Shown: in pieces, positions 1,601 through 60,139 of the stretch
Position numbering within the stretch: the first letter of the stretch is position 1
How the letters are laid out: each line of letters begins with the position of its first letter
Assembly: GCA_008632985.1 (NCBI GenBank)
Contig: QPGO01000238.1
Span: 1 to 64,000 of the forward strand
Reading direction: 5' to 3'
Length of the DNA stretch: 64,000 nucleotides
From: Psammoneis japonica
Taxonomy: Eukaryota
Notes under the pieces: model-generated
Told to the model about the DNA's origin: nothing
The model's database searches: none
What the model saw: only the letters and a program-made list of their open reading frames with translations
Translations under genes and position numbers: made by a program

Positions 1601-1699
1601 CCATTTTCACTCATGCTCCACAGTGCATGCCACTGCTTCTGTTGCGAGCACCATTGGTGCATCGGCTTCCCTTGGCGACTTTGCCATGCCCAATGTTGT

Positions 1700-24200: not shown

Positions 24201-24770
24201 GACTGTTGCGCAGGTGCTGTCATTTTGTCAACCCTTCAAGACCCTCATGCACGTGGCTGTGCTCAACCTGCCACAAGCAGCACAGGTTGGACCTGGTTGT
24301 CAAAAGTCAGAAAAATGACTGCTCGCCATTGCCGCCATTGTGACGACAAGGCACCGCCATTCATTCAGGGCAAGCAGCAGCACGTTCGGCATCACACTGG
24401 GTTGGCAAGCACCCCAGCAGCACGCTTGAGACTTGTTGGAAAACCAGTGGGCAAGGTGAGGGAGGCATGTGGTGCAAGCATGGCCGAAGAGGGTCTGCCA
24501 CCGGTTGAGGACTTTGGCAGAAGGCAATGCCATGTTTGAAGCTTTCTCCTTGGCTTGGGCCCTCTGCTTCTTCCAAATGACACAAGAGGAGGGTGGAATG
24601 TGATGCAAGCGTGGCCGAAGAGGGTCTGCCGGTTGAGGACTTTGGCAGAAGGTGACGCCATGTTCAAAGCTTTCTCCTTGGCTTGAGCCCTCTGCTGCTT
24701 CCAAATGATGTGCTCTTCCTCCATCGTAAAAGGCGAGGCACCCGGTGGCAACCATGGCGGCAAGGTGCAA
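21300..24770. repeat. TpA-depleted degenerate block with internal duplications
   Basis: A ~75-bp unit occurs about 3 times (22441-22695, gaacaagaagaagcagcctgggg). 21545-21705 resembles 23880-24040, and further repeats lie at 23000-23870 and 24480-24715. Confidence 0.75.
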
Positions 24771-25799
24771 GGTGCGTTACGTACATTTTATGTGGACATA
24801 CATTTTTTTTAAATGTTGCTACAGCATGTTTCAATCGTACGTCAATCGTGGGTTCGTACGAAGGACAGATCAGTCACACAGAATTGCAAATACGATCGCT
24901 TGGCGATGTTGACATCACACGTGTCAACAGCAATCGTACCCGGACAATCTGTTGTCACAATTGTATTCCCCGAAAGGCCTTTTAGTCTGTAGAAGTAGTG
25001 CAAAAGCTTCAGGCCATTGAGAACTCGTTCGGAGAAACCCAAAATGATTGAGTGAAATCCAATCTCATAATTTTCACTTTTTGCACCTTGTTCTGCTTTC
25101 GTTTGCACTCATTTTTTGAACACAGAGCAGGGGCCATGAGGATGTGGGGCTGGCCACTGCGTTGTTGACATTGCGGTTGGCTGTGAGACCTCATGAGGAG
25201 TTGTTGTCGCTGACAGCAAGATGAGCTTGCCACCAGCCTCGTTGCTCCCAGAAGGCTGGACAGTGCCATCAGAGCACTCTTGAGCTGCTTCAAGTGCGGT
25301 TGATCAAGTCCTCAATGAGCTCCTCTTTTTGTGGCTTCTCTTGGTTTGTTCTGAGGCCTTTTCTTTTTCTTTCACATGACTTTCATGCTGGCTCTCTTCT
25401 TGGCGCAGCTGTTCCTCATGCTGGCCCTCTTTTTTCTGCAACAGCTCTGCGTGCTGGCACCCCTCAGCACACTTGATCTTTCTCCTCCCACTCCATCACA
25501 ATCTTGCAAAGATCTTCTCACAACTGAGGTTCCTTCTGCTTGTGCTGACCCCAATCCTCCTGAAATGCCCTCTGCGCTGGCATCAAGGCAGTGCTTGATT
25601 TGTGCTGATGATGTGGTGGTGGCATGAGTGCGACACCTTGCTCTGCCAGTTTTTGAAAGCTGTGCCTGTCATGCTGAATCACTTGCTTTTGCTGCTTCTG
25701 CTCCACTGCCTTCTTGACAGGATCAACTTTTCAGGCCATCATCCTCCACAGCACTCTTCAAAGCTCTGTGTCTCCTTCATTGCGGGGCTTTGTCCTCCA

Positions 25800-28700
25800 C
25801 AGTGCACTCTGCTCAGCTGATTGAGCTCATTTTGCGGGTGTTGATCAATCAGTTCTCATCACAGCCCACACAGTGCAAGTTTGAATGATGCTCCTGTCCC
25901 CAGCCCTTGACCTTGGAACACAGCATTGCCCAAGTGCTTGTGGTGCAGCAAGTGATGTCCACCACCATGCACAAAAATCTGCCGGCTCTGCACCAAAGCA
26001 TGGAGAGCTGGAGGACTTGCAGCAAAGTCCACCCCTCTTCCTTGCAGCACAGCATTGTCTGGGTGCTCATGCCATTGTGTGCTTGCTAGAATCCACCAGC
26101 TTTGTGCCAAGCACAGAGAGATTGGCTGCGCAACTCTTTTCCATGCAGTGGAGGTGATCTTTGCAGCCTTTGTGCTCTCCCAGTTCTCACATGCATCTTT
26201 CAGATCAGAGCAAGAGGCTGGCTGCCAAGGCATCAAAATGTGCAAAGCAAGACTTTAACTTCTTGTGCAAGGAATCTCCTGCAAGCTGGCAGAGTTTGCA
26301 GAACATGAAGACTCTGTCTGATGGTGACCAGCTTGCACAGAAAGCCCACCAACGATCTTCCATTCCATCATGTGCAGGATCTCAACCTTTTTTTTTAGAC
26401 AATGGAGAAGCAATCAGTTGTTGCTTGCACAGCTCACACAGATTGTGCCATGTCATGTTGCTTCCATCACTTGGCTTGAAGAGAGCCAGGGTTCGCTGCC
26501 ACTCATTGAGCACAGAGGCAGGCATGTCATCATTCTCCACCTTGGCAGCAGTGACCATCAAAGCAGCATTGGGGGCACAGGAGCTTCTTGTGGTGGACAG
26601 CTGTGCACTTGGTTGTCTTGCTGCTGACAACACAACCACCAGCAATGTGGAATGCACAGACACAGCTTGCCCTCATGAAGCACCAGCTGAGGAAGACAAG
26701 GGTGAGCTCCAGTGTGCTGCAAGCTGGAAGGAAAGCACCAGCTTTCTTTTGGCTTGTGTCATGGTCCACATCAGTGCTGCAAATGTGAGCTTCTTCAACA
26801 AGTTTCCAGGGCAATTCCCCCACAATTCCTCAGGATGTCAAGGACAAGTTTGCTCAACCAGACAAAGGGCATGTCAAGCTTGATGAAGACAATGAAGCAG
26901 GCTCTCTTTCTTGTTAATTTGCCAAGATTGCCACTGAGGCAAGAAAGATTCATGACTTTCACATGGCCCTTTCTGCATGTCACAAAGGTCATGCCCTGGT
27001 GCAAGTGTCACATCTGGGCTCTGTTGCAATCTTGGAGTTCACCAATGAAGTCTTCCATGCAATCAGGCACGCAACCTGTTGCTCTTTTGTCAACCCCAAC
27101 TGGCCCAGAATCAGTGTCGAAGGCCACTGTGTGTCACAAGATGGTTTCATGCTGAGCCTGCATCACCACCACAACCACAGTCAATGCTGCAGCATGATGT
27201 TGGCTCATGATCGCTTGGGGCTCTTAAGCATGTCTGTGGACTGGCAGAGTTTTTGGATTCTCCCTCTTCTGGATGAGCCAGTGTTGGCACTGGTGGCCCA
27301 GATGGGGCATGCAATTTGTTCTCCAATCTTGTGCAATGTGTTGGTCAAATGTTGCCAACCAGAGTGCAGCCTGCACCATCGCTTGCACTTGGGTGGGCAG
27401 AATGGCAGATGCCCTGGGATGTTGCAACAGAATGACAAGCAGTTGACAAGGATGGCAGCTGATGGACTGCAATGAGCGCATGCCATTGAACAGTCTGCGA
27501 TGATCAGTGACAGCACAGCATCACAAGGTTTCTAATTGCACTTCCATCTGGCACTCAATCACAGCAGTCACAACCGTGGCCATGCTCTGGAAGTCATTTG
27601 GATTTTTTGTCTGACCCCTCTTCATCAATGACTGCCTTGCATGCCTTGGCTGGCTCAAGGTGTCTCTTGTTGTTGCCCTTGTGGCTGAACTTCTTGGCAT
27701 GATGTCCATCCTCACTGTTCTTGTCTTCAGCTGGCCTTTTCTTGTTGCACTCCAGGTCAAATGCACAATTCTCAGGAGTGTGCTTGAGCCACTTGCCATG
27801 GTGGCCATCTCCAAGGTCCTTGCAGCAGCAACAGCATGGTGCACCATTCCAATGCCTTGGTTTGGAGATCACATCCTTGGCAGGGTGCAAGTTCTCTTTC
27901 ACCCACATTGGCGCAGCCCCCTTGTCACCATCTTTGCCTTTACCATGCTTGGAATCATCCCCATGGTGTTTCCAGCAGTGTCCTGCTTTTTGGCTTGCTT
28001 TTCAACACCTTTCACCTTGGCTCACAAGGCAAGCATCTTTTCCTCTTCTTTGCTGGACAAGTTCTGCTTCTTCTTCTGAACTGAGTTCTCATGCTTGTCT
28101 GCAAGCATCATGAGGTGAGTTGGCATGATGTCTGATGTCCTTGCCACCCTCATGCTCCTCTTGCTTGTTTCCAATGCACTTGACAAAGCTCTCATCTGAA
28201 GCAGCCAAACTCCCTTTGAACAGATTCATCAGGAGGTCTTCCATGGTTTCACCATGAGACCTCAACGTCGCAAGCAGAAGAGCCAAACTTCATGATGTCA
28301 TGACCAATTGTGAGAAAATGTTGGTCAAGCTCCACGAGTTTCATGTGGGTCATGCTTGTGGCTGTGTTCATGTCAAAACGTGACTTTTGAATGATGACCT
28401 TGAGAAGCAAACAACCAGAAAGCTTGTCTCTGATCTTGTGGGACTTGTCATGGATGTGCAGCACCTCATCCTTTCCACTTTTTTGAGATCAAGTTGATGA
28501 GACAGTTGTGTCCGAGAATGGCACTGTCTTGGGCCCCTTTGCAGGAGCTCACAATGCATGACTCCTTGTGTCTCTTGATGTGTTCCAAGCTGACCTCACC
28601 ACAATTGGTGAGCAGGTTTGAGTGCGTTGCATCAGGATCATCAGGGTCCTTGGGTGTCATGAAAATTCCAGTCACCAGGTCATTTCATCCAAGCAAGCTG

Positions 28701-28950
28701 GCCCTGTCCTCAATGTCATTGAGGAACTGAAAGAGTTTGCCTGGAGTGCAGTGGAACATCTCCCCACTTGGCAGCTCTTCCAAACCAGTTTGGAAGAGCC
28801 TTTGTCCAGCACTCTTACAAAAGCCAATTGCTCCCTAAGTCACCTGAGCCAGAGTTGGAGCAAATGGAATGTCCTCATCAGATGATGAGGATGACACCAC
28901 ACTTAAAGCATCTGACACATCTCTTGTCTTCAGTGCAAAGGAAGTGCGTC
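25800..28950 (-). mobile_element. Old, heavily degenerate LTR-retrotransposon (probably copia-like) gag/protease remnant
   Basis: Minus-strand fragments resemble diatom copia gag: NLLTNCGEVSLEHI..AQDSAIL, LSGCLLLKVIIQ..DMNTAT, GETMEDLLMNLFKG.LAASD..FVKCI, and a Zn-knuckle-like GKW..H.PENC. A protease-like FDTDSGPVGVDKRA lies at ~27080-27120. Both TA and CG are depleted, and the ends are not defined. Confidence 0.6.
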
Positions 28951-31128
28951 ATGACATCCAGAGCACAGTCAACAGACAAAGTGTGATGATGAACATTGGA
29001 CATGGGGCGATTCCAGGTGCTGGTGTTGCAGTGGCTAAATTGAGATTGTGAGGAGAGGAAGCTCTCTGTGTCTCTTTTTTGAGGTCCTTTGAGTGACATT
29101 GATCCCAATGGTGCAAGTCACATTGCAACGGTGAGTCACAATGACTGCCATGATGATTTGACAATCTTCACAGCAAGTTCCTCCCCAGCAATGACTTGCA
29201 CTCAGGGTCAAAAAGTGAACAGCAGCTGTTCAGGCAGATCTTGAAGAAGCACAACAAGTGCCATTTTAAAAGCCAATGGCTGAAAAGCACAAGCTCAAAA
29301 TGAGCAAGTCAAAGAGAAGAAGTGGTTTGCATTTGCCTTGGTTTTTGCACGACACCTTTGTTGAAGAAAAGCAGACTGCTCCAAAATCTCTTGGTTGCTG
29401 ATGCATGAGAAGTGTCTCAAATGTGCCAAGGCACTGGGAACTGATGGAAAACTCAAGGCACCTGCAGGTTGGATTGCAAAGACCTCAAAAAATCATGACA
29501 AGGTTGAAACCAATTTTTGCAGAAAAGCAAAATGAGAGAGATCAGATGCAGAAGCAGGTGATGTCACAAAATGATGGAGATTGAGTGAATTTTTGCCAGT
29601 GTTTTGATGAAAGAGAATGTCCCTCCAGAATGTGCATGGAGTGCCAACTGGGTGGGGCTGTTTCCAAAATGTCCAAACTGAGGTGCACATGGACAAAGCT
29701 GCCAAGAAAGAAATTTGCAAGTGTCAAGCAAATGAAGGATGAGACACAAGCAACCCTCACAGTTTGCACCTCACATGCACCATCAGTGGGAAAGCTCCCA
29801 TTGACTTCACAGTGGCTGACAGTGTTGCAAAACCACTGGTGCCACACACAGATGAACATCAGATCACAGGGTTTTGTTGCAGCAGCAGCATTCTTTGGTG
29901 CACTGGCGACATCTTCTGGCCTTGTTGTTTGTGCATGCATGGCAATGCACGCGCGCAGCTCTCTTTCTCAACAACTGCAGTGCACACATTGAACAATTGA
30001 TGAGGGCACACTGTGAAGGTGACCTCACAAGAGCATTGTGAGAGCACACTGTGAAGGTGACCTCACAAGAGCTCCCCCCCCCCACTCAATGTCACTGGCC
30101 AGCTGAAGCGGGGGCGATGGCCAGTCTCAAAGTGTGCTGCAAGACTCTCCTTCTCACAGAGCTGTCAGAGATGTTTGACATTGGAGGTGGCTGTGAGAGT
30201 GTTGAGCTCACCACCAGTGGAGGTGCTGCCGGCAAGCAACATTGTTGAAGTTGCGAAAGAGTTGTCTTTGGCAGCAAAGCTCCTCATTTGCTTGGCTCAC
30301 CTGGAACAAAGATGATGAACATGCTTGCACCACCAACACAATGAAACATTGCTGGTGCAAGGCCAACATGCATCCTGCATCCTGGCACAACAAACAGGCA
30401 GACACACCAATGATGACCATGGCACTCAAAAGCGTCAGCAGATGAAGTGCTCAGGCGCACCAAAAGGGAGCAGGCATTGTGAAATGTGGTTGATGTTTTG
30501 TGCAACAGGCAAGCAGCAAAGCACTCCACTTGCACCACCCAATGTCATTTTTTAAAAATCTGTTTGATTTGAACTGTGGCCACACATTTGCACAGGGCCA
30601 GCATTGTGTCATTGCACTCTGCAAAACACAGCAAAAGCAGATTGATGATTTGTGCAACAGGCAAGTGCTCCACTTGCAGCACCCAACATCAATTTTTTTA
30701 AAAATCTGTTTGATTTGAACTGTGACCACATGTCCCCACATCTGCGCAGGGCCAGCATTGCATCATTGCACTCTGCAATGCACAGCCAACAGCTTGCAGA
30801 ATTCGGGCACAATTGCACCATTGCACTCTGCGCAATGAAGCCAAGTGCTCTCCCAGGATTCCGGAACAAAGACAATGGACATGCTTGCACCAACTCAATG
30901 AAGCATTGCTGGCACAAGGCTGACACACACCCTGGCACCACAGGCAGATGTCAGTGATGACGTTGGCACACGCAAGCATCAGTGGATGAGGCACTCAGGA
31001 GAGTGGAGCACAAGAAGTCAAGGGAGGGTGTTGTCGAAAAATCAGATTGAAAATTTGTTCAGTGGGCAAGCAAAATGCTCCACTTGTGCCCTGCAATCTT
31101 GACCATTTTAAATCTGTTCAATTTGAGC

Positions 31129-31404
31129 TGACAGGATTTGAACAGGATTTGGGTGCGCGCGAAATGTCGCGCACTGTTTAGTTCACCGCGCACAGTTTTG
31201 TGTGCTTTAGTTCCGCGCATTCGCGCGCGATGTAGTTTGCTTTCGAGCCACAAGGCTCACAAGAATAATGACAGTAGCCCGATTGTGCCGACTTGCACGT
31301 CTTTCGGCTCCTGCAACGGTCTCTGAGCGGAGACTCATCTGCCATTTAGACAGCAGTGAGGAGTTGTTGTTTGAATTCTTGCCATTTGCCTTCAATTTCT
31401 GTCA
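31129..31404 (+). repeat. 5' LTR
   Basis: TG...CA termini. It aligns without gaps to 37951-38226 with ~15 substitutions, all transitions. Confidence 0.97.
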
Positions 31405-32342
31405 GATTGACAGTCTTGCTCATTGTCAACCCATTGAGCAACCGCCATCGTCGTCGTTGATTTACTGACGACGCTGTCTCAATTCTGCGTGGACCTCCAT
31501 GTGTGTTCTACGTACATCGGCAAGTCTACGCGCATTCAACACCAGGGCATCGGCAGGAAGTTAACGTCACCATCAAGTCTCCTTGCCGCTGGACATCTGG
31601 ATTGATTGTGCTCCCTTTGATCGCTGAAGACATGCATTCAACGGTCACATCCAAGTCTGTCCTTGATCCTCATCCCTTGACACACCCATTCAACGGTTAA
31701 CGGTCAAGAACCCTGCACATTCAAGGATCTCCGTCGCTGAAGACATGCACACACACACATCTTCACGGCCAAGGACTTGAACCCACTCTTCGGACTGCGG
31801 CTTTGCTGCCACTCTACAAGCACGCCGAGTCCATTGTGCCTGATCCACCCCAGACTGCTGGTGCTCTGCAGTTCTGCTGGGTCCACCAGGACGACTGTGA
31901 GAGCAAGCAGTCCGTGATTGCAGCCTGCGTTGGGGCGAGGGTGTTTTCCCGCGCTTGTTCGTTCGTCCACAGCGCCCAACGCCTGCGTCAACTGGCCAGC
32001 CTGATCGGGAAATCCAACTGACATAAAATGAGAATGGTTCGGGGGTCTTGTCCACCTCCAGTCAGCTCACCTGCAGGGGTTTACAACCCGCTGCTCCGCT
32101 CGCCAGCAACCCAAAGCGCCGCCAGCTGCGGGTTCGGACGTGCCGGCACAACTCTACGGACCAGACAGGAAGTTTAGCACTTGACAACGAACGGGACAGC
32201 ACAGCCCGGCGACTTCTGATTTTAAGGTAGTTCGAGATTTCAAGTCAAGTCTGTTTCAAGTCAAGTCCATTCTCACCCAAGTTTCAAGTCTGCCTTCGCT
32301 TCCCAACAAGAATTGCTTGTCCTGACACCACTTTTGTCTGCC

Positions 32343-35300
32343 ATGGTTCTCACTCGTCAGCAACAAACCGATGGTTTCGAGCACGTTGTTGGAACCGTGC
32401 TTGCCCAAGGTGCTGGGAGCCCTCTTCATTTGGCTTTGGCCCAAGACGGCACGGACTCGTGTCAAGAACTGTTCACGTTCATGCCGTCCCAAATCGACTC
32501 ACTTGAGTGCGACAACGGCACCAATGTGATCCCTTTGCCCCGCGGTTATAAGAACATGTTAGCAGCCCCAGTCAGTCTGTACATTGTCAAAGCACATGAA
32601 GGTCTTGACGTTGCCAATGACTCCTCGTTGTTCACGCATGACGAGTTCCTTGCCCACCGCCTCAGCCCCGACTGCATGTCTTCTGTGTCCATCGGCAGCT
32701 CACCCCTCGCACCTCCGCATGTCACCAACCCGACCAAGGCACGCGACCCGGTGCAAGACTTCAAGCGAGGCATCAAGCGTGATCCCACCGCTTTCACAGC
32801 TCTCAAATCCGACAAGCAGTGGCACACTTGGCACACCTCACTTGTGGCACAAGCCCGTGCCCAAGACGTCGAGTGCATTCTAGACTCGTCGTACAAACCG
32901 ACCAGCCCCGAAGACAAACTGCTCTTTGCTGAACAGCAAAAGCACATGTTCGCCGTCTTCAAACGCATTCTTCTCACCGACAAGGGCAAGGCTCTCATTC
33001 GCGAAAATGTGGGGTCTTCTGATGCCCAGACCATCTGCCGCGCCTTGTCTGAGCATGCGCTCGCCTCCACCCGCGCATCTGTCGAGTCCTCCACCTTGCT
33101 CACGCACCTTGCCACCGCACGTCTTGGTGATGGCACTTGGAAAGGTCCGACCCACGGGTTCATCCTTCATTGGCAAGATCAGTTGCGCAAGTGCGAGGCA
33201 CTCATCCCGGCCAGTGACCACTTCTCTGAAGGACAGAAGCGCATCATGCTCAAGAATGCCGCACACCCTGTCGAGGAACTCCGTGCTGTCAAGAACCAAG
33301 CTGATCAGCATCGTGCGCAGAGTGGCAAGAGCCTCACACACGATCAATGCTGTGGCTTGCTCCTCTCCGCGGCAGCTCAATGCGACAGTGCGTTTCAACC
33401 CAAGACGACACCTTGAGCTCCCCGATGCGCCATGTGCGCACACGACGTCTGCTCCGAGGAACCGTCCGACGATGTGTTCTGCGACATTGACAGCGACATT
33501 GACGTCCTTCAGGCCAATGCTGCCTGCGCCCGTGGTCCCAGCCTCACCGGTGACCAATGGAAACGCCTCCCTCCCGACCACCAACGGATTTGGGATTCGT
33601 TGCCCCATTCCTCCAAGGCGATCATCCTTGAGCATTCTCGTCCGCCTCCCCGCAACCCGCGAGCCAGCAACTGCCATGAGTCCATTGCGGCCAACCTTCA
33701 CGACCAACGCCTTGGGAGTGACGGTGATGTCAACTTGTCCAACACGACTCCTGCTGACTCTGGTGACTCCGCTCCAAATGTGGATGCCACCTCGGATGAT
33801 CCCATCCTGGCGCACCTCACCAAGCGCAAGCCACTGCCACCCGGTGATCTGCAACATCTGTTGTCTCCTAACCAAGCCCCCAACGCTAGTCGACCGGGGC
33901 CATCCGCCGCTCCCTCTACCCCGCTAGCTCCTGCCGATGACACAGAACTTAACGGCCGCACTTGCCGCCGCGTTGACAACCACAATGTCATTCACTCTGC
34001 CTCTGCTCATCGCTCCACACGCACTGGCGCTCTAGTTGATCGTGGGGCCAACGGCGGCATTGCTGGCGACGACGTTCGCGTCATTGCACGCACCTCTCGC
34101 CAAGTCGATTTTCAGGGCATTGACGACCACCAGTTGGTGGACATCCCCATTGTCACCGCTGGTGCCGTCATTGAGACCCAGCGTGGTCCCGTCATCGCCA
34201 TCCTCCATCAGTGCGCATGCACGGGCAAGGGCAAGACCATTCATTCCTGCGGCCTGTTCGAATGGTACAAACAGGATGTCAACGATCGCTCTGTCAAGGT
34301 GCCCAACGGCTTGCAACGTGTTGCCACTCCTGATGGCCATGTCATCCCCATTGACATCAAGGGCGGCCTGCCTTGTGTTGCCATGCGACCTCACACTGAC
34401 ACCAAATGGGACACCCTGCCCCATGTCATCCTCACCGGTGATGACACATGGGATCCTTCCGTCCTCGATCACTCTGTCACTGATGACGACCAGTGGTGCG
34501 ACGCGATCTCTGACCTGCAGGACGATCCCACTGCCAACCCATTTGACGAGTGCGGCAACTGCCGTCATCGTGTCGTTGTCAACGAGACCATCATGTCCGC
34601 TTCCTTGTCTGCCGATCACGCGTCCGCCCTCGATGATCATCTCATTCCGAATGACGACGTGTTCTACGAGTGTCATCTACACGCGATTGACCCCAAGGAC
34701 GATGACGTTCCGCCCCCGGAGCGCACTGTGCAGCCCAAGGACCCCCCCTTCGAGTCTCTTCGGCCTTGCTTTGGCTTCCCACCTGCCGATGCGGTCCATC
34801 GCACTTTTGACTGCACCACGCAGTGCGTCCGCATGCCCGCCGGCACACACCTTAGGAAGGCCTGCAAATCACCCAACCCCGCCCTTAATGTGCACCGCCA
34901 CAACGAGCCCATCGCCACTGACACCGTTTGTGCCGACACTCCGGCCGTCGACTCTGGTTGCACCAGCGCCCAACTGTTTGTTGGCACCGAGTCTACCGTC
35001 ACTGACGTCCACGGCACCAAGACGGACAAGGAGTTTGTCAACACACTCAAGGATCAGATCCGTGAGCGTGGTGCCCCATCCAAACTCATTAGCGACCGTG
35101 CTCAAGTTGAGATCAGCAACAAGGTGCTCAGGATTCTACGAGCCCTCTTCATCTCCAGCTGGCAAAGTGAGCCTCACCAGCAACACCAAAACTTTGCCGA
35201 GCGTCGATGCCAGACCGTGAAGCGCATGGCGAACACTGTCATGGATCGTTTCGGTTCGCCTGCCCACACATGGCTGCTGGCACTCATGCACGTGTGCTTC

Positions 35301-38003
35301 ACACTCAACCACACAGCGTCCCCACGTCTCCACTGGTGCACGCCCCTCGAGACTCTCACTGGCTCCACCCCGGACATCAGCCCATTGCTTCACTTTCACT
35401 GGTGGGAACCCGTGCACTTCCACCTCGATGACTCCGATTGGCCATCCGAATCCCGTGAGTTGCATGGACGCTTTGTTGGCATTGCTGAGCATGTCGGCCA
35501 CCAGATGACCTTCAAGATTCTCTCTGACGAGACTCAGAAGATCCTCTGCCGGTCCAACGTACGATCCGCTGCCACCGATCCTGCCGTTCGAAACCTGCGT
35601 CTTGATCCTCCTGATGGGGAGCCACCTGAACCCATCATCAAATCTTGCCATGACGACAACCCCGTCGATTCTCCTGATGGGGAGATCAGGACACCCAAGA
35701 TGCCAGTTTTCGATCCGCAAGACATCATCGGACGCACCTTCCTCATGCAGCCACAAGAGGACGGACAACGCCACAGAGCTTGCATCGTCAAGGCCGTCGA
35801 AGACCACGAATGGAAAGTGAACGGCAATCCCGAGCTCACTAAGTTCGTCTGCTCTGTCAACAACGATGAATGCGAGGAAGTCCTTGCCTGCAACAACATC
35901 ATGAATCACATTGAGCAAGAAGACGAAGACACTGCTGTTTGGAAATTTCGACGCATCGTGTCACACGAAGGACCTCTGAAGCCTCATGACCCAACCTGGA
36001 AAGGCTCAAGCTACAACACAATGCTTGAATGGGAAAGTGGGGAGATCACGTCCGAGCCTCTTGCCATCATCGCCAAGGACGACCCCGTCACCTGCGCCAT
36101 CCATGCACGAGAGAACGGACTTCTCGACACTGATGGCTGGAAGCGGTTCCGCACCATCGCGAGGCGCCAGAAGAAGCCATTTCGCGTGGCCAACCAAGCC
36201 AAGCTTCGCTCCTTCCGCACTGCACCTCGCTACAAGTGCGGATGCGAAGTTCCCCGGAACTGCAAACACGCCATGTCACTGGACGAACGCAATGGCAACC
36301 GCAAATGGGGAGACGCAACTAATCTCGAGATGGACCAACTCGGGGAATACGAAGTCTTCCATGACTGCGGGCCCTTCGAGTCTTCCACTCCTCCTGCTGG
36401 ACACAAGAAGATCCGAGTGCACCCAGTGTGCGACGTGAAACACGACGGTCGCCACAAGGCACGACTCGCAGCCGATGGGCACCTCACGGACGTACCCATC
36501 GACAGTGTCCACTCCGGAGTGGTCTCCCTCCGTGGCCTTCGGCTGATGATTTTCCTGGCCGAACTCAACGAGTTGGAGACATGGGCCACCGACATTGGCA
36601 ATGCCCACCTTGAAGCCACCACCAAGGAGAAGCTCTACATTGCAGCCGGACCCAAATTTGGCAAACTCGAAGGACACATCCTTGTCATCCACAAGGCCCT
36701 GCATGGACTGCACAGCTCCAGTCTCCGGCGCTTCGCCGACTGCCTGCGAGCTGAAGGCTTCTTCCCCTGCCGCGCCGAACCCGACATTTGGATGCGCAGG
36801 AACGGCGACCACTGTGAGTGCATTGCCGTTTGTGTGGATGACCTCGCCATTGCTGTGAAGGACCCTCAATCTTTCGTTGACACTCTCACAGAAAAGCACA
36901 AGTTCAAGCTCAAGGGCACGGGACCCATTGAGTTCCATCTGGGTTGCGACTTTTCCCGGGATCCTGACGGCACCTTGTGCCTGTCTCCGCGCAAGTGCAT
37001 CGAGTGCATGGTCAACAGCTGCACCCGACTGTTTGGGGAGAAACCCACCACCAACGCCCTGTCACCTCTGGAGAAGGGTGACCACCCCGAACTGGACACT
37101 TCCGAACTGCTGGAGCCCGATGGCATTCACAAGTTCCAGTCTCTTGTTGGTTCACTCCAATGGGCAGTGTCCCTTGGTCGAATTGACATCACCACGGCCG
37201 TCATGTCACTCTCTAGCTTCCGAGCTGCGCCCCGTCAAGGCCACTTGGATCGTGCCAAACGCGTCTGTGGGCACCTCTCCAAGATGCGACACGGCGCTCT
37301 CCGCGTTCGTACGGAAGAGCCCGACCATTCGGATCTCCCTGCTCCAGCCTGTGAATGGATGCATTCCGTGCACGGCGAAGCAGAAGAGATGATCCCGAAG
37401 GATGCTCCACCGCCCCTTGGCAAGTTCATCACTGCCACCCACTGCGTCGATGCAAACTTGTGCCATTGCATGCTCACCAGACGCTCTGTCATGGGAATGC
37501 TCCACTTCCTCAACAAATTCCCGGCTGATTGGTTCTCTAAGAAGCAAGCCACCGTGGAGACTGCGACCTGCGGGTCTGAATTTGTTGCCGCAAGGACTTG
37601 TGTCGAGCAGATTGTCGACCTGCGCATCACCCTGCGCTGCCTTGGCGTCCCGATCCACAACGTCAGTTACATGTTCAGTGACAACAAGTCGGTTGTAGAC
37701 AGTGCCACCATCCCACACTCCAAGTTACACAAGCGACACACCGCACTGTCGTTCCACCGTGTGCGCGAGGCAATTGCCTCTGGTTGCCTTGAGCTCCACT
37801 TCATCGAAGGCTCCCACAACCCTGCTGACATTCTCAGCAAGCATTGGGGTTGCTCCCAAATCTGGGACCTTCTCCACCCCCTCATGTCCTGGAACTTCAT
37901 TCCATCCGAAGTCGAGTCTGTTTCTGTGGCTCCTCAAGCAAACTGGGGAGTGACAGGATTTGAGCAGGATTCAGGTGCACGCGAAATGTCGCGCGCTGTT
38001 TAG
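32343..38003 (+). pseudogene. Copia gag-pol (gag, protease, integrase, chromo-like domain, RT, RNase H) with one in-frame TGA and pervasive Tyr->Cys/His changes
   Basis: ORFs 32313-33416 and 33432-38003 share a frame across TGA 33414-33416. Motifs: FKRGIKRDP (gag), LVDRGANGG (PR), ATDTV..ISDRAQ..QNFAE (IN), KARLAADGH, DIGNAHL, CVDDL (RT), VDANL, SDNKS, NPADILSK (RH). Confidence 0.93.
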
Positions 38004-38226
38004 TTTGCCGCGCACAGTTTTGTGTGCTTTAGTTCCACGCGTTCGCGCGCGATGCAGTTTGCTTTCGAGCCACAAGGCTCACAAGAACAACAACAGCAGC
38101 CCGATTGTGCCGACTTGCACGTCTTTCGGCTCCTGCGACGGTCTCTGAGCGGAGACTCATCTGCCATTTAGACAGCAGTGAGGAGTTGTTGTTTGAATTC
38201 TTGCCATTTGCCTTCAATTTCTGTCA
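37951..38226 (+). repeat. 3' LTR
   Basis: Preceded by a PPT, ends CTGTCA and is followed by the TSD TGAGC. Confidence 0.97.
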
Positions 38227-38686
38227 TGAGCTGTGTGAGACACAGCTCAGGTTGATTTTTCATGCTGCCCTCCTCGCTCTGTGGCGGGCTTGGCATCCAA
38301 CAGCTGATGACTCCAAAATGCTGTGCATTGATGAAATCCTGCTCACTGCATTTCAAGCATGACATTTGTTTCCCTGGAGTGCTGCAAACTGCAAACACCC
38401 CAGAGAGCTGGATAAAAAGATGGTCTTGTTTTTTCTTACTTTGGTTGGTGCCAAGCTGAGTCAGAATAGAAGCATGCACGCAAGAGGGCGTTTCAGGGTG
38501 TCCGTCTGTCGTCCAATGGTCATTGTACATTGCAGTGATTGACACTTTCCGCTCTTTGGACAAGCTCTAATGCTGACTGTAAGAGTAGAGGAGTCGTCTA
38601 CCCCTCGAGCGCGCGAGAGGCTTCTTCTCGCAAAATACAGCCAGTGACATACAGTAGCATCAGTCAGTTCTGCTTCTGTTGCTGTG

Positions 38687-39740
38687 ATGAAATGGTCGAA
38701 TGTCCGTATCTCGGTTTTGCTGTGTTCTCTACTGGTGGTGGGTTGGACTTGCAAAGAAGCTCCTCAATTGAAAGGAACGCAACTCGAAGTGACTGAAGAA
38801 AAGTCGGAACCTGCCACGGGCTTTGTTCATTACATGACGACCCGGAGCTCTGGCTGGAACAACCAGCGCCAGGGTGCTATGATGGCCTGGATGGTTGCCC
38901 ACTTTACGGGGCACACGCTTGAGCTTAAACCATTCCATCCAGCTAGCACCGGTATCCGGCCATGGAGACCTGTGGAATCATTCTTGTTTGGAAAAGCGCG
39001 TTGGTGTGAGAAATGTTCCTAGCAACAAAACATCAGAAGGATATGATTACATCATCAGATTGTCAAGCGTCTTTGCCAACTACTCAGACTTACAGGCTTT
39101 GAAAGCACATAAAAGAATCACCTATGACAAGGGCTATGCATACATCGATCGTGCCTTCCCCTGGCTTAATCCATCGCAAGAGGTGTTCTCCCATCTGATA
39201 GATTCCTTCTCCTATAACTTAAACATTCAAAAAATAGCGGAACTGGTGGCGAAAAGAATTGGTCGGCCCTACGTTGGCGTGCACATTCGAAAAGATAGAG
39301 TTCCAGCAAGCAACTGTTCAGCATTGGGTCTTTAGGTTAGTTTTGTCAAGGATTTCAAAAGCTGGAAATACCATTTCAGACGTTGTGAGGGACTAAACTG
39401 GACCAATGTGGTGGACAGAATGTTTCCAAAACTTGATGATGACCACCAGATCTACATTGCTCATGACAGCAGAAGCAGGATGGACCCGACCGTGCTTGGC
39501 CGGAATTTTCTGCAGTCGTTTGACTTTGCTTTTGTCCGCCAGCTATCTCCTGCAATCATGTCAGCTGTGGAACAAGAAGTCATGATTCGGGCAGAGTATT
39601 TTATTCCATCCATGTATTCCTCATGGAGTGAATATGTAATCTACAAGCGTGTCGTTGCAGGCAAAGCTGATGGAATGCAAAACTATCAAGTTTGGAAGGA
39701 CAAGAACAAATTGTATTATGCACAACGTCTTGGTTCATGA
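38687..39740 (+). pseudogene. O-fucosyltransferase-like glycosyltransferase with a frameshift (~38990) and an in-frame TAG (39333-39335)
   Basis: N-terminal signal anchor plus SGWNNQ, YVGVHIR, IYIAHD and VEQEVMIRAEYFI..YSSWS, which are typical of the O-FucT family. The lesions could be real, assembly errors or an unrecognised short intron. Confidence 0.65.
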
Positions 39741-42794: not shown

Positions 42795-45016
42795 TTACTC
42801 GTCACTAAAATAGATGTACTTCCAATGGGAGGCGGGGACGCGATCACGCAAGCGAACAGGCAGCTTTACTCTCCCGCCATGCTTTCCAATGTCTAGCGAG
42901 TCCTTAAATGCACGTCCCAACATCAACTTGTCAGGGTCCCGAAAGTCTTCGATATTTTTGTATTCATTGCTGAGCCTTTTCGTCAGCATGTCAAGTTCCT
43001 TCAAACGCGACACATTAGCAACAACATCCTGCGCTCTGTCAAACCACGAATTCTTGGTTTTCAAAAGGTGCCTCTTGACCCATTTCCACCCTTTTTTGTT
43101 CTCCAAATCATTCGCCCTGGCGTACTCTACTAGAACCTCTGGGTCTTCTTCTCTCAGGTCGTCATCTTTGCACTGGACCCTTTGCCATTCTGAAGATCCG
43201 TCTTCCCACAGTATTTTAACTTCAAGCGTCTTGTCCGACCCCTTGTGACCGATTATCTTGGCAATCCCCGGTGAATCCACCATTGGGAGTGTCTTGCTGA
43301 ACCCCTTCCAGCCGTTCGTGTGCAAGAGATCATTTTCGGCAGCATAGCGAGCCAAAATGTCCGGGATCTCCTTTTTGAGTTCGGATAGATTTCTCCATTC
43401 AACCCCTCCTCCTTGCCAACGGATTTTAACTTGTGTTTTCCCACCTTTGACGCGGTGGGCTTCAATCCTTTCCGGGTAAGCACGGCCCTCCATTATCTCA
43501 TCGCGAGTGTATTCCTTTTCGTCGCCGTGACCAAAGTTCACAACATATTTCTCGCCGTCTTTTCTCACCACTGTGCCTCTCTTCAAGTTCACAACATATT
43601 TCTCGCCGTCTTTTCTCACCACTGTGCCTCTCTTCTTCTTCTCATTCACCGAGTCTACGAACTCGGTTCCGAAGATGTCGTCAACACCCCCATCGTTGGC
43701 TACAACTGATGGTGAGCTGGCAGTCATGCTGGAAACTAAATCCTCATCCCAGCATACGAAGTACTGGTCGCCGTCAAGGTCGCCACCCAATTTTTCCGGG
43801 AGAGATTTCTCGCCTGCCTGGCTGCAAGAAAATACCACAATTCCAAAATGGAGAGAGCAGAGTAACTTCCAGTCTTCTGTTTTCATTCCGTTTGGTCTGC
43901 GTCGAATACTTTCAACTAGCAGGCTGTCATCAATCTCCGTGTTTGGAGATCGTGTGACAAAGATCTGCTCTTGGGCCGATTCTTCACCGCGTCCCGAGAT
44001 GAAAATAGTGCCATGAGGCAGCGAACCGGTCGGGTCTGCAACGCCAGCGCACCAAGCATGTTTGTGCAGATCCCAGGATTTCGTTGAACTACAACAATAG
44101 TCCTCTAGCATGTCACGAGGGACTCCCCGGGCCAGCATCATCTTACGTATTGAGACAGGTGGCGCTTTTAGAGCATTCGAGGGTTCTCCTGTTGGGTCTT
44201 TTAGATTCGGATTTAAGCTGCACTCAATGCGTTCGCAGATAGTCGAAGGAAACGTTCTGATGACATCGACATACACCCATCGCTGCGAACGCGTCTTGAG
44301 TAGAGAGGCGTTGACCTTCTTCAAAGACAGTGGCAGTTGCACTCGTTTGATGCCATGTTTCCTCACCAACGTGCCCTTGAATATGCCAAGACCGGGCGCA
44401 ACCACTCGAACTTGTATAGCGCAAATCAATGCACCCTCCTTTTTTCTTCCGAAAAGCTTTTGGATAATATCTTTGGGAATAAAACCACTTCCTTCATTTC
44501 CGTTTTCCTGGATTTCTTCAAACTCAGAAATGTCCATTTTAAACTGGTAGGGAACTTTCAATTTGCCCTTTGAACGCGCAGCGGGAGACACCAGCAGTTC
44601 GAATCGGGATGCGACTTTTGTAGGGGATAGCTCCTGGAAATTCGCGATCTTTTCCATTTCCTTGCGAACCTTGTTCTTCGACATTGATACGTAGTAGGCT
44701 TTCACGTACATTCCCTGGTCGTCTTTCCCGTTAAACTTGTGCGATGATGCTCCTTTTTCCAACTTGGAGCAGATTAGGGTGCAATCCTCACCTGCCACCT
44801 TGCGCTGCTTTTCAAGAGGGGGGCTTTTCATGCTGACGTTTCCCACCTTAATTATCTTCAATTTCCCGCCAAAGAGCCAACGAAGAAAGAACTCGTCCGT
44901 GCTTTCCTCGAAGCAGCAAAACATGTACTGTTAGATGCGGTACATATTATTCTAGAAGAAGTTGAAAACAATGATAGAGACAGACATACTGTAGGAAGAT
45001 GATAGCTAGAGAGCAT
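42795..45016 (-). CDS. Cellular (RNAi-type) RNA-dependent RNA polymerase with two C-terminal chromo-like domains
   Basis: IQVR..GIFKG, GVADPTGSL..GTIFI, FVTRSP and the catalytic GGDLDGDQYFVCWD. Two repeats follow the pattern I..H.....V.I.W..G..EW.......P.....YA..NDL....GWK. A putative 62-nt GT-AG intron (44989-44928) adds MLSSYHLPT; this 5' exon is uncertain. Confidence 0.85.
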
Positions 45017-45399: not shown

Positions 45400-47508
45400 T
45401 TACAGTTTTGCCATATCGAATGTAGGCTTGTGATTGACACCCTTGTTGCACGTCCTGAACTTTGACAGGGGCCCAGAATTCTCTTGCAAAAAACAATCAA
45501 CCTTGCCGTCGTAGCAGTCGTCAAGGCACTGTACGACCCTAGCGGCTCGATATGCAAAGCTTTTGATAGGATCTTCCAAGGACTTACCGGCGCGCACCTG
45601 ATCTTTCACGTCCTGGCATGCATCCACAAATACCTGAACCTTGGTAGCAGCGTCCTTGGTGGATTTAAATTCAGATTGGTAGTCACGATCAAACTGTACG
45701 ACGGTGTCACCTGTGGACTTGGTTTTTTTGGTGTTCCTTTCATCTTGAGCTGGGTCAGTAGCAGCTCGCTTCTCCCTTGCACTGTTGGTATTGGTGAGTA
45801 CTTCAAAAGTTGTAGACTGTGCAGCACGCACTCTTTCTGCAGCCGACTTGTCGTGCATTCGCATCACCACCTCTGCCTTGCTAGATCCAAGCTCACGAAT
45901 CAAGAACTGCTTCATTTCTTCTTCATCAGACAAGTCCGGGGTGTATGATGTAGCTTTTGTGAACAGCTGCTTGACAGTCAATAAGTTGCTCTGCTGCACA
46001 CCAAGCAGTTCCGTCACGTACCAATCAGCAAGTTCTGGTAGAGGCTTGCGGCACCTGGCAGAGTCTACCATGACGGATGCAAATGAAGAAAGATGCTTCA
46101 TATGGATGGGCTCCCATTTACCAACACGGTGAGCATCCTTGTCCTTTTCCCCATCAACTAGAGCCTTCAGTGTACCACTGTCAGAAAGGTAAGTCGCGGT
46201 ACTTGATATGTTCTTGTGACGAGCGCTCAGCAATGTGTTCGCTTCGGCCATCTCACCCAGCCGCCCTCCGTCACGCGTAGAGCCCCATTCAGCAAACGCA
46301 AAGCCAGTCCTTCGAAGAATGTGTGTTCCAATGATTTCAGTTGACATCTTATCAATGTCTCTTCCCAGAATGGTTTCGCAAGCAAACTTGAAAAAATCCA
46401 GGAGCGAGTCGCATGGAAAATTTTCGTCGTGATGTTCCTTGTTGAGCTCCAACTCGTCTCTAGTGGGAAACAACTTGCCCGACTTGATGCCGGAATAATG
46501 CATCCAAAGGAGAACAGCAATAGTTCCTGAGAATTCAGGACATTCTTCATCGTCCCAAATCATGAAATGAAGATCCTTCTCGTCACGCTTGCCACGGATT
46601 TTGGTGCAGAGACCCTTGACGGCATTTTCCGACACTTGGAAGTACTCGGTGACAAACTTTTCAACCGTCATCTCCAAAACTTCTTCACAGCGTAGAAATA
46701 ACTTTGTACCAACAATAATGATAGTCCAAAGCATTAGATGATACTTGTCATTATGTGACAAACAGTAGTCTCGAATAGCCCGCACCTCGCCCGGCAAGAA
46801 TGCAAAAGCACTTCTAGCTTCGTAGTAGTTTGATGCGTAGTCTTGCCATTGGTCAATTGCAGCCTTGAAATCTTCATGTTTGGTGGCATTTCCACGACGC
46901 CAGAAATGGGGATCACCAGGGTGTTTGCGGCATCCAGTGCCCTTTCGGGCTTCCTCCTCGCCAATCTCATGACAAGCAGTGCACATTTCTCGGCATTCGC
47001 CATTGGTCGTTTCGTAGTGCTTGTGAAGCTTGCTCATGGCAGTGCGGAAGAGCCCAATGGAAGAATGACCTTTCCAATCACCAATGCAGGTGATAGGGTT
47101 TCCATACCGGTCCTTTACAGGAGCGTTCGTGCGGTTGTGAAGCAGTGGTTCGCCTTTTTGTTTTGTCCTGAACTGAGTAAACTGGATTGCTGTATCCAAA
47201 TTCGAAGGAAAAGGATCTGATGGACACAAGTCACGTGCCGGCAGCATGGCACTTTCAGAATCATCAATCAGGTAGCAGAAGTCACGAAAAAGCCTCCATA
47301 TGGGTTCATACCGTGCAATAGAACTAGTCGCAACAGCGTCAGTGCCTACTTCGCCGGTCTTTTTGTTCTTTCCTGTAATTGCAAGTTTTGGTGACGTTGT
47401 GTCAAGCTTGTACTTCTTCAGTGTCTTATTCAAGCTCGACTCACCAAGAGAGCGGGTTTGCTGCGTTATTTTGAATCCGCCGCCCTTCAAAATAACGTAA
47501 GATGTCAT
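45400..47508 (-). CDS. Tyrosine recombinase (DNA breaking-rejoining) protein, Crypton-like
   Basis: Catalytic residues in canonical order: LFLR.EE (R), RGKRD (K), THILRRTG (HxxR), ARHK (H), ATYL (Y). Long intact ORF with the first ATG at 47508. Confidence 0.8.
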   Translation of the reverse strand: MTSYVILKGGGFKITQQTRSLGESSLNKTLKKYKLDTTSPKLAITGKNKKTGEVGTDAVATSSIARYEPIWRLFRDFCYLIDDSESAMLPARDLCPSDPFPSNLDTAIQFTQFRTKQKGEPLLHNRTNAPVKDRYGNPITCIGDWKGHSSIGLFRTAMSKLHKHYETTNGECREMCTACHEIGEEEARKGTGCRKHPGDPHFWRRGNATKHEDFKAAIDQWQDYASNYYEARSAFAFLPGEVRAIRDYCLSHNDKYHLMLWTIIIVGTKLFLRCEEVLEMTVEKFVTEYFQVSENAVKGLCTKIRGKRDEKDLHFMIWDDEECPEFSGTIAVLLWMHYSGIKSGKLFPTRDELELNKEHHDENFPCDSLLDFFKFACETILGRDIDKMSTEIIGTHILRRTGFAFAEWGSTRDGGRLGEMAEANTLLSARHKNISSTATYLSDSGTLKALVDGEKDKDAHRVGKWEPIHMKHLSSFASVMVDSARCRKPLPELADWYVTELLGVQQSNLLTVKQLFTKATSYTPDLSDEEEMKQFLIRELGSSKAEVVMRMHDKSAAERVRAAQSTTFEVLTNTNSAREKRAATDPAQDERNTKKTKSTGDTVVQFDRDYQSEFKSTKDAATKVQVFVDACQDVKDQVRAGKSLEDPIKSFAYRAARVVQCLDDCYDGKVDCFLQENSGPLSKFRTCNKGVNHKPTFDMAKL

Positions 47509-47899
47509 CGTCGAGTGTGTGTTTTCTCTCTCGCGAACGAGAAATGCGAGTTTTTGATGATTTTCTTTTGGCGCGCCCCTCGAGTTTTCGAATGACCCTT
47601 TGGACAAAGCTACTTAGGGACGAAAGAAAGTCAAAAATTACTTATCAGTGCACCGCTGTGCACCGGAAACTATGCCAGTGCACTTGAAGTGCACCGCCCC
47701 CTTCAACTAAGCACACGTCACTATCTCAAAATATCACCCCCCCTCTGGTGCCTATAGATACTTTTCTCGGTACGCTACGCCACCAAAAGATTTCAAAACT
47801 AAAGAGGAACAGCGCTGTGCACTCTATGAGCCGATTACACCGACACACAAACATGATCAGCATTCTCATTTCTGAGCAAGGATGGATCAAAAATGAGGG

Positions 47900-49700
47900 C
47901 GGACATTTGTGGGCCCACACTTCGCCGTGTTGTTTTGACCTTTCTCGAAACACCCCCAAATCCAAACACTCATCTGTTTCCCGGGAAATGCCGACAAGTG
48001 GCATTCATTGACAGGCTGTGAGACACCATCTCTTCAGTCAGCTGCACTCCCCAGCCCCGCCATGTCATGGGACTCCGTGTGGCATGGACCTGCGTGAGCT
48101 CCGCAGTGAAATTGTCAAGGAATGAACACATGAATGATCACCAGCAGAAGAAGAGGCAAATTTTGCGAACATGTCTCCTCCTCCACACTTTAACGGGGTT
48201 GGCCACTGCTTTTTTAGCTCAAATTTCGCCGAACAGCAGCTCGTGATTTGCATGATTTTTTAAAATTCCACCATGCTTCGCCATGGTGAAAACAGCAAGC
48301 CATGAGTCTGTGATGAAAGTTTGTCAGTGTCATGCTCTCATTGGTGTTGCAATTGCCATGTGTTGCATGATCAACGTCAGTCGAGAGTGTGATGCCAGCA
48401 AACTGTGTTTTCGAGAAAAAGATTGATGGTTGCTCCTGTCATCATCGTGCTGCAATCACAGTGGCTGATGTTCTCATTTTTGTGCATGATCAGTTGCAAA
48501 TGTGGAGAACAATTTTTGCATTCAAAAATAAAAAAACTGCAAACAATCTTGTTCAAATGGCACGGCAATGTCAGGACAAACCCGGGGTGGGCCACATCAT
48601 TTGCAGTTTGCCCAGGCATGTTCTTCAGACACAAAAGAACACAACCGGCCCATTTTTGCTCTCATGAAGAATGATGAAGAAAATGGAAAGCCTTTGGCTT
48701 CACAAAACAGGGAGCACAAAGCAATTTTGCAGAACACAGCACACAAAAATGTGCGCGCACAACATGCGGTGCGATCCGAAAAACTCTCATGTCACAGCCC
48801 ACCAGCAGTCGCGCAAGGTCCCGCCCAGAGCCAGAGCAATGACTTTGGCAGAGGTTCTGACTTCAAGGTCACAGCCACCTGTGACATGTTGCCTTTTTTG
48901 CCTCCCAGACCAAGGGTCACTTTGTGGCTGCAAGCTTGGGTTTTGTGCATTTTGCTTCCCAAAAGGAAGAAGTTTTGAGCAGTTTTCAAAAGTTGAGCCG
49001 CATTGGCGGATGGTCTGTCTTGTGTTTGAGGTGGCATCAAGAGATGTCAAGGGGCTTGGCTTTGGTTGCAACCTCAGAAGAGCAATTGTGATGACAACAT
49101 TGGCTGCTTTTTAGACTGTTCTCAGCACTCACATTTGCGGATGGTTTGTCTTGTGTCAGGTGGCGCATGTCAAGAAATGTCTCAGGAGTTTTTTTCTTCT
49201 TCTGGCACTCTCTGCTTCGGCTGGAACCTCAGATTTGTGGTTGTGACAACAACATTGGCTTCTCTTCAGCTGTCTCCAGGCTCATTTTGCCCACTGAAAG
49301 GTGAGTTTGGCTGGGTTTGTTCACACGAACACACACGTGCACAGCCGCCGCAGACAGCTGAGGGGCGCAAAGAGGTGGGGCTCTGCTGAGTCCAACAATT
49401 TAGCCACTGTTTCCTGTCACATGCAGTTTTCACAAATGCAAACCCTGCCACTGACCTGAAATGACAACAGGGAGAGAGCAACAGGCTCAACGAGCACGGT
49501 TTGATTGCGGGTGGCGGGAACAACGGATGATTTCCCAGTGGGGGTCGCGCCACGACTCCCTCTCGCGGGACTCGCATCCTCCACCTTGATTCCTTGAAGC
49601 AAGGCGTGACAATGCTGGGTGCATGCATGCGCGCTATGCCGCGACCTTCAATCGTGCACAGCGACCAAAAAGTGAGATGGCAAAAACTGCACACGGATCG
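47900..49700. repeat. TpA-depleted degenerate block upstream of the recombinase
   Basis: Very few TA dinucleotides. Internal duplication cattggcggatggtctgtcttgtgt / catttgcggatggtttgtcttgtgt (49001-49110 vs 49132-49265). Confidence 0.5.
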
Positions 49701-60135: not shown

Positions 60136-60139
60136 ACAT

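Follow-up and report, generated by a model that had tools for sequence, protein, structure and literature searches.

The closest described counterpart of the locus treated here is found in a chlorarachniophyte alga, Bigelowiella natans. In mutation-accumulation lines of this species, two integrated viral regions mutated at ~6e-7 mutations per site per generation, ~1000-fold above background, and 230 of the 231 mutations in these regions were A>G or T>C, with all 230 located at TpA (Mettrop et al., bioRxiv 10.64898/2026.01.13.699255). The available text of this preprint also reports 324 coding sequences that are nearly TpA-free and enriched for reverse transcriptase (RT) and DDE domains, and it proposes, without a test, an ADAT2-like DNA adenine deaminase; diatoms and the wider sequence context are unmentioned in that text (10.64898/2026.01.13.699255). 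The work is a 2026 preprint that is not yet peer-reviewed and, as available, a single study of one alga. In this study, we analyzed a 64-kb stretch of the nuclear genome of the diatom Psammoneis japonica (contig QPGO01000238.1, hereafter the window), which carries a complete Ty1/copia long terminal repeat (LTR) retrotransposon at 31129-38226, together with the read contigs of one sample. The reading we favor, and consider probable, is that a hypermutation of the B. natans kind (TpA>TpG/CpA) really took place, after integration and targeted to domains: a young Ty1/copia element would have been inactivated in place by DNA-level conversion of TpA to TpG or CpA through A:T>G:C changes that can hit either strand.

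As far as the available preprint text goes, the two cases resemble each other in that A>G or T>C changes at TpA on either strand give TpG or CpA, in that the changes are confined to bounded domains (foreign DNA there, a copia element and further stripped domains here), in that they far exceed the background and in that TpA loss coupled with a gain of CpA and TpG remains as the long-term trace. They differ in their hosts, a diatom (stramenopile) here and a chlorarachniophyte (rhizarian) there, and in their main target, which is a very high-copy LTR retrotransposon family here and, in the text available, a single-copy integrated virus there. The stripping is also deeper here, with TA observed/expected ratios (o/e) of 0.03-0.14 compared with 0.45 given for their nucleocytoplasmic large DNA virus (NCLDV) region. 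Dependence on flanking bases and a parallel CpG decay are shown here and do not appear in the available preprint text, whereas de novo events were seen in real time there and the changes here are read from sequence divergence. Our literature search returned this preprint as the one matching description and no diatom report, and the accessible portions of PMC4504042 and PMC9258296 contained nothing relevant to TpA hypermutation. A first-pass annotation of the window had proposed an undescribed genome-defense system working in the reverse direction of fungal repeat-induced point mutation (RIP). The signature is real and the reversed direction holds, since TpA is depleted and CpA and TpG are enriched, but the system is not undescribed, because the B. 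natans preprint, in the text available, precedes it (10.64898/2026.01.13.699255).

RIP, like the process seen here, is a domain-wide transition hypermutation that wrecks mobile DNA and leaves a dinucleotide signature. However, RIP changes C to T mostly at CpA and creates TpA, whereas here TpA is destroyed and CpA and TpG are created. RIP also requires duplicated sequence and a sexual phase, while one stripped stretch here is single-copy by read depth. Decay of 5-methylcytosine (5mC) at CpG is active in the same domains as the TpA loss and also ends in TpG or CpA (5/23 CpG sites differ between the LTRs), but it cannot remove TpA and runs slower here. Animal ADAR editing of RNA and APOBEC editing of cDNA are comparable in leaving deaminase-type transition clusters in retroelements, and ADAR prefers a 5′ U. 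Those activities precede integration, have RNA or a single cDNA strand as their substrate and are strand-biased, whereas both strands are changed here, after integration, and a non-repeated flank is affected too. ADAR-type RNA editing fixed by retrotransposition was rejected because both strands are changed and because LTRs and alleles differ at TA-derived sites. Mutagenesis of the type of diversity-generating retroelements (A to any base) was rejected because nearly all changes are A>G or T>C, with transversions numbering 0 for the LTR pair and 2 for a 1331-bp repeat pair.

The assignment of the element to Ty1/copia follows from its direct LTRs with TG..CA ends, a 5-bp target-site duplication (TSD) and an RVT_2-type RT within a gag-pol polyprotein (Table 1). 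The family resembles the diatom copia-like (CoDi) LTR retrotransposons in its short LTRs, its 5-bp TSD and a gag-pol of ~1,850 aa that includes RVT_2. The gag-pol frame at 32343-38003 has a start at 32343 and one in-frame TGA, which refines the pol-only open reading frame (ORF) annotated earlier. A public gag-pol protein (P0001, 1859 aa) aligns to it in a single tblastn high-scoring segment pair over 32343-37913, with residues 1-1850 collinear and no frameshift. No integrase or protease model matched the pol ORF at E <= 0.001 in a Pfam search.

The pol ORF of 1523 aa has exactly 7 tyrosines (0.46%), where the first-pass annotation had given about 7, together with 55 cysteines (3.61%) and 84 histidines (5.52%). 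Among the best 120 long homologues, tyrosine makes up 3.03-4.97% of residues (median 3.88), while the medians for cysteine and histidine are 0.98% and 3.48%. Conserved columns were defined as the 670 positions kept in at least 80% of 20 homologues, and the query is identical to the conserved residue in 589/670. At the 35 conserved tyrosine columns, it keeps tyrosine in 4 (all TAC) and has cysteine in 15 (TGY), histidine in 12 (CAY) and phenylalanine in 4, such that the annotated replacement by Cys or His applies to 27/35. Every motif quoted in that annotation is present, including ECIAVCVDD at 36816-36842, where the tyrosine of the RT active-site motif YVDD is a cysteine and the active site is destroyed, as had been stated. 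The TpA specificity of the changes could be checked in the 81 substituted conserved columns: 32 fit TA>TG/CA only, 10 fit CpG>TG/CA and 6 are other transitions, while 16 are transversions and 17 need multiple changes.

At the nucleotide level, the element has 45 TpA in 6,800 bp (o/e 0.14), where the TpA density of the window's normal DNA would predict ~267 (Poisson P 2e-63). Measured per kb, TpA o/e is 0.08-0.17 over 33001-38000 and 0.36-0.79 in gene regions, and TG and CA o/e climb to 1.2-2.1 where TpA is stripped. Two-state segmentation of the window yields 33.2 kb of stripped and 30.8 kb of normal DNA (one 500-bp "stripped" bin is mostly N gap), in agreement with the earlier estimate that about half of the window is TA-stripped. 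The stripped domains (Table 1) have TA o/e of 0.03-0.14 with TG and CA o/e of 1.4-2.0, and most normal segments have TG and CA o/e of 1.1-1.3. Two further claims of the annotation also stand: neighboring genes keep normal TpA, with TA o/e of 0.50-0.59 in gene-bearing normal segments, and the losses are domain-targeted, as sharply bounded stripped segments lie adjacent to normal genes. At a resolution of 100 bp, the domain edges are sharp, and they do not merely coincide with element ends. The 5′ LTR and leader (31101-31600) are spared (TA o/e 0.39), unmutated islands occur at 4201-5000 and 24701-25000, within stripped domains or at their margins, and all three intervals hold TpA in every flank context along with normal CpG. 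The bin 14201-14800 was also segmented as stripped, yet its CpG is normal and its TG/CA excess mild, and it probably reflects coding bias rather than hypermutation.

Both strands are changed about equally, as seen from the outcomes at conserved tyrosines (Y>C 15, Y>H 12) and from the TG and CA o/e of the element (1.53 and 1.37). This accords with the annotated A:T>G:C losses at TpA on both strands, as does the LTR pair with its 0 transversions. Strand-coordinated clusters of Cys and His outcomes were not found (12 runs vs 14.3 expected, P 0.24). Flanking bases alter the susceptibility of TpA, and sites with a preceding pyrimidine and a following purine (YTAR) are resistant. The surviving TpA per kb relative to normal DNA is highest in TTAA (0.40), TTAG (0.37), CTAA (0.31) and CTAG (0.22), intermediate in CTAC (0.21), TTAC (0.15), ATAA (0.11), GTAC (0.11), GTAG (0.06) and TTAT (0.05), and lowest in CTAT (0.03), GTAA (0.03), ATAC (0.02) and ATAT, GTAT and ATAG (0 each). 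YTAR accounts for 74/135 of the TA retained in stripped DNA vs 197/1055 in normal DNA (P 5e-18), including 12/15 in 25001-31100 and 8/9 in 53901-58000, the two oldest domains. The flanks do not predict which way a TpA changes. Polarized single changes comprise 7 TG and 7 CA in RTAR and 6 TG and 3 CA in YTAY (Fisher P 0.67), and the preceding purine or pyrimidine does not predict a His or Cys outcome at tyrosine codons (P 0.26). A per-strand TAY target was tried and rejected, as it fits the survival data but not the direction of change.

The focal element has a CG o/e of 0.85 but a TA o/e of 0.14, while the older domain enclosing it has a CG o/e of 0.15-0.31 and a TA o/e of 0.03-0.04. A young element that is CpG-rich yet TpA-poor indicates that TpA loss outruns the parallel CpG decay. 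By the codon table, TA>TG/CA never makes a stop codon and removes TAA and TAG, which explains how the pol ORF stays open despite a dead active site; for the same reason, the open frame gives no evidence of selection. The interval 32313-37718 holds 12 mutually overlapping ORFs (at least 150 aa each) in several frames on both strands, with TGA as the only stop left.

With respect to the chemistry, an enzyme would deaminate adenine to hypoxanthine in DNA at TpA, a step that we put forward tentatively. Alternatively, the thymine of TpA could be modified in silenced DNA, for example to 5-hydroxymethyl- or 5-formyluracil by a TET/JBP-type enzyme, and pair with G to give T>C, which we regard as unlikely. 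TpA is self-complementary, so sequence cannot separate T>C from A>G, and both the symmetric outcome described above and the independence of the change direction from the flanking purine or pyrimidine are in keeping with a thymine-side lesion. The 5-hydroxymethyluracil of dinoflagellates is reported to favor TpA and TpC, and 5-formyluracil is reported to mispair with G. On the other side, the B. natans authors favor adenine deamination, although in the available text they do so on the basis of an ADAT2 homologue only.

The timing of the changes can be read from repeats, since the two LTRs of an element are identical at the moment of insertion. The 5′ and 3′ LTRs (31129-31404 vs 37951-38226) are now 94.6% identical, and they differ at 6/9 TA-derived, 5/23 CpG and 1/212 other sites (Fisher P 4e-9). 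The TA-derived differences are 3 TA<>CA and 3 TG<>CA, with 1 other transition and 0 transversions besides. The same holds for the repeat pair 3350-4686 vs 11419-10088, which differs at 32/44 TA-derived (19 single and 13 TG/CA double changes), 13/58 CpG and 12/1127 other sites (10 other transitions and 2 transversions). By comparison, the control pair 16743-17071 vs 16988-17310, a repeat lying in normal DNA, differs at 0/8 TA-derived, 2/9 CpG and 24/289 other sites; it is 8.3% diverged at other sites yet has no TA-type difference. TG/CA doubles are present in 8/9 further repeat pairs compared within stripped DNA, and TG in one copy with CA in the other means that the same TpA was changed independently on opposite strands. 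Overall, 67-73% of visible TA-derived sites differ vs 0.5-1.1% of other sites, and this divergence ratio, which is not a measured rate, shows TpA loss to be hundreds of times faster than background. The hypermutation occurred in DNA after integration.

Two repeats deserve separate description. The inverted repeat 3350-4686 / 10088-11419 is 1.3 kb long and 94% identical, its arms are stripped independently and partly, and it has no protein match. An LTR-like repeat has 1 TpA in its copy at 1-298 and 19 in its copy at 6459-6807, with 16 TA<>TG/CA differences between them. The latter copy adjoins an N gap (6808-7155) and has a local TA o/e of 1.17. Perhaps it inserted recently and is still unmutated, or perhaps many copies collapsed into one consensus at the end of a contig; a majority consensus over independently mutated copies would restore TA.

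Read evidence came from the contigs of one public run of one sample, in which 62% of the sampled words of the window are present. A 1721-nt read contig with a word depth of 58, the same as the unique flanks, joins 31123 (30701-31123) to 38227 (38227-39524). This empty-site contig has a single TSD copy and 10 flank differences from the window (0.6%), including TG vs CA at 30955-30956. The insertion is hemizygous or polymorphic, with one allele occupied and the other empty, and the perfect TSD together with the empty-site allele indicates a young insertion. The LTRs at background sites (0.5%) and the alleles (0.6%) have diverged to a comparable extent. The summed depth of the family over the element is 50,000-240,000 vs ~58 in unique flanks, and its copies in the reads differ nearly only by transitions. 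Of 40 listed variant places, 11 have TG or CA in the window while TA makes up 10-70% of the family depth, and at three further listed places the window has CA and other copies have TG; such a mixture of TA, TG and CA is expected of many independently mutated copies from a TA-bearing source. The stripped flank bin 30500-30816 has a depth of 99 vs 58-120 for unique bins, and its single-copy depth argues against a need for present-day repetition. The repeat targeting named in the first-pass annotation is therefore at most a possibility, and the B. natans target is single-copy as well. It may be silenced chromatin, rather than sequence repetition, that marks the target domain.

These data also bear on whether the copies were edited before they integrated, in which case RNA or cDNA would have been changed during retrotransposition by an ADAR-like enzyme or a single-stranded DNA deaminase and TA-poor copies inserted. 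Such editing would suit a retroelement family whose copy number is very high, and edited intermediates could in principle yield differing LTRs. We nevertheless consider it very unlikely, because the older single-copy flank (30500-30816, depth 99) is stripped even further than the element, the flank alleles differ by TG vs CA at 30955-30956, and both strands are about equally changed. The sharp edges also lie off the element ends, with a spared 5′ LTR and leader and islands at 4201-5000 and 24701-25000, and the B. natans events, in the preprint text available, arose in situ in single-copy DNA.

Even less probable is an artefact, in which a modified TpA base was misread or collapsed repeats were mis-assembled and the true genome has TA. 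The platform of the sole run is unrecorded, this run is possibly the source of the assembly, and an N gap adjoins the oddly unmutated LTR-like copy. Against this, read contigs at ~58x word depth reproduce the stripping of the unique flank for both alleles, the pattern stays within domains while genes have normal TA, and the same protein-level signature appears in unrelated JGI, ENA and Logan assemblies. The B. natans changes were moreover seen by Illumina sequencing as heritable de novo mutations, according to the available text of the preprint.

Relatives of the element are not stripped. All 79 related metagenome loci have TA o/e of 0.43-1.02, although one of the two seed patterns of the metagenome scan required tyrosine and the scan is thus biased against stripped copies, and all 120 long homologues have at least 3.03% tyrosine. 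These relatives of CoDi type differ from the focal element in their ordinary TpA and tyrosine, and the best of them, from marine and other metagenomes, are 53-69% identical to it. Judged from these homologues, TpA stripping is not a trait of the retrotransposon family. Several related loci are CpG-poor with ordinary TpA, which shows that CpG decay alone does not strip TpA. In public genome contigs, 2 related loci were found and neither is stripped; none were found in viral contigs. An ordinary compositional origin, by selection against TpA/UpA or by GC-biased gene conversion in the element family, is scarcely credible: TpA is mildly low everywhere (~0.5-0.6 in the genes of the window), but the relatives are unstripped, catalytic and other conserved tyrosines are destroyed, the LTRs have diverged at TA sites since they were duplicated, and GC-biased gene conversion is not known to have dinucleotide specificity.

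Short public RT fragments give another view. Among 120 such fragments, 58-72% identical to the query, 93 have YVDDL, 4 HVDDL and 3 CVDDL. Seven keep under half of the 11 conserved tyrosine columns, with replacements that are nearly all Cys or His: P0260 (0/11), P0330 (1/9), P0282 (3/11), P0331 (3/9), P0306 (3/8), P0332 (4/10) and P0333 (4/10). The same seven retain 83-87% of other conserved residues. Fragment P0295 and the intact P0366 (YVDD), which share a 90% cluster, differ at 18/205 residues, among them Y>C 2, Y>H 3, I>V 3, V>A 2, R>C and R>H. One JGI/ENA family has copies with Cys and copies with His at the YVDD tyrosine. Copia RT fragments with Tyr>Cys/His in JGI, ENA and Logan assemblies also include P0361 and P0364, and I>V and V>A changes accompany this signature. 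The Tyr-depleted fragments may come from other species or from other families of the same species.

Several observations weigh against post-integration hypermutation targeted to mobile DNA. Polarized single changes go in the TAY-predicted direction in just 13/23 cases and give no support to a per-strand TAY target, the kind that would speak for a deaminase acting on one strand. The differences between LTRs could conceivably have been introduced before integration, on replication intermediates. The LTR-like copy at 6459-6807 is unmutated despite being repeated. Among 99 ORFs (at least 100 aa) from the other stripped domains, none gave a credible Pfam match (two matches are at chance level), tblastn with 12 copia proteins gave matches confined to the focal element and a weak patch in an RNA-dependent RNA polymerase (RdRP) gene, and a mobile origin of the non-copia stripped domains is an assumption. 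The sequencing run may also be the assembly's own source, with an unrecorded platform, in which case the read support is not independent.

Table 1. Coordinates of the copia element, its parts and the TpA-stripped domains in the window.
Feature	Position	Strand	Remarks
Target-site duplication TGAGC, left copy	31124-31128		Same 5 bp as 38227-38231; single copy in empty-site contig
5′ LTR, 276 bp, TG...CA ends	31129-31404	+	Less mutated LTR, 6 TA
gag-like N-terminal portion of gag-pol frame	32343-33413	+	tblastn with P0001 and translation
Sole in-frame gag-pol stop, TGA	33414-33416	+	Translation; no frameshift
pol ORF, 1523 aa, 7 Tyr	33432-38003	+	ORF list, homologue alignment
RT domain, Pfam RVT_2, residues 988-1180	36393-36971	+	E 4.4e-17
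RT catalytic motif, reads CVDD	36831-36842	+	93/120 public fragments have YVDDL there
3′ LTR, 276 bp, TG...CA ends	37951-38226	+	More mutated LTR, 3 TA
Target-site duplication TGAGC, right copy	38227-38231		Perfect 5-bp match to left copy
Older TpA- and CpG-stripped domain hosting the insertion	21301-31123		TA o/e 0.03-0.04, CG o/e 0.15-0.31
Far-side remainder of older stripped domain	38227-38400		Zero TA in 38170-38412; joined to 31123 in empty-site contig
Stripped domain	1-4200		TA o/e 0.10; contains LTR-like repeat 1-298
Stripped domain	5001-6200		TA o/e 0.09
Stripped domain	8201-11200		TA o/e 0.08; holds inverted partner 10088-11419 of repeat 3350-4686
Stripped domain	47901-49700		TA o/e 0.06
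Stripped domain	53901-58000		TA o/e 0.04, CG o/e 0.20
Stripped domain	60001-61500		TA o/e 0.04, CG o/e 0.17

The genes of the window have long unbroken exons. A fragment of acetyl-CoA carboxylase (62258-64000) shares 70-74% identity with proteins of Seminavis, Amphiprora and Helicotheca and 88% with another protein, in keeping with a diatom host. The RdRP gene (Pfam RdRP) lies at 42795-44930 (-), 4.5 kb off the element, and a patch within it (43053-43475) weakly resembles copia pol residues ~1200-1375 (E 1e-4 to 1e-6). A DUF285 repeat-protein ORF at 14590-15927 (+) is overlapped by five tandem 150-nt repeats at 14250-14994. Three long ORFs of normal composition, 11906-13888 (+), 45400-47613 (-) and 58714-60171 (-), of 660, 737 and 485 aa, matched no Pfam family. 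Neither tRNA genes nor Rfam families were found within the 64-kb window.

Compared with B. natans, the new points are the diatom lineage, how deep and extensive the stripping is, a retrotransposon as the target, the rule for flanking bases and a CpG decay that goes on alongside; also new is the Tyr>Cys/His signature that other public copia fragments carry at the protein level. The deep stripping, its extent over about half of the window and the apparently very high copy number of the family suggest that the process is widespread in the SAR (stramenopiles, alveolates and rhizarians) supergroup and shapes diatom genome composition. A second host becomes available for enzyme identification by comparative genomics, and the flanking-base rule is a constraint that any candidate enzyme must reproduce. 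There is also a warning for annotation: stripped elements keep long ORFs on both strands, have Cys or His in place of Tyr and diverge fast from their own copies, and with such ORFs and such divergence they can be mistaken for genes or missed as repeats. It is possible, though we hold it with some reserve, that diatoms and chlorarachniophytes share an enzyme-driven, chromatin-targeted A:T editing at TpA that disarms transposons and integrated viruses permanently in vegetative cells. If so, it would be the A:T counterpart of 5mC decay and RIP, dead elements would become long open frames because no stop codons are created, and the enzyme could be traced by setting genomes that show the signature against those that lack it, for which two distant hosts are now available.

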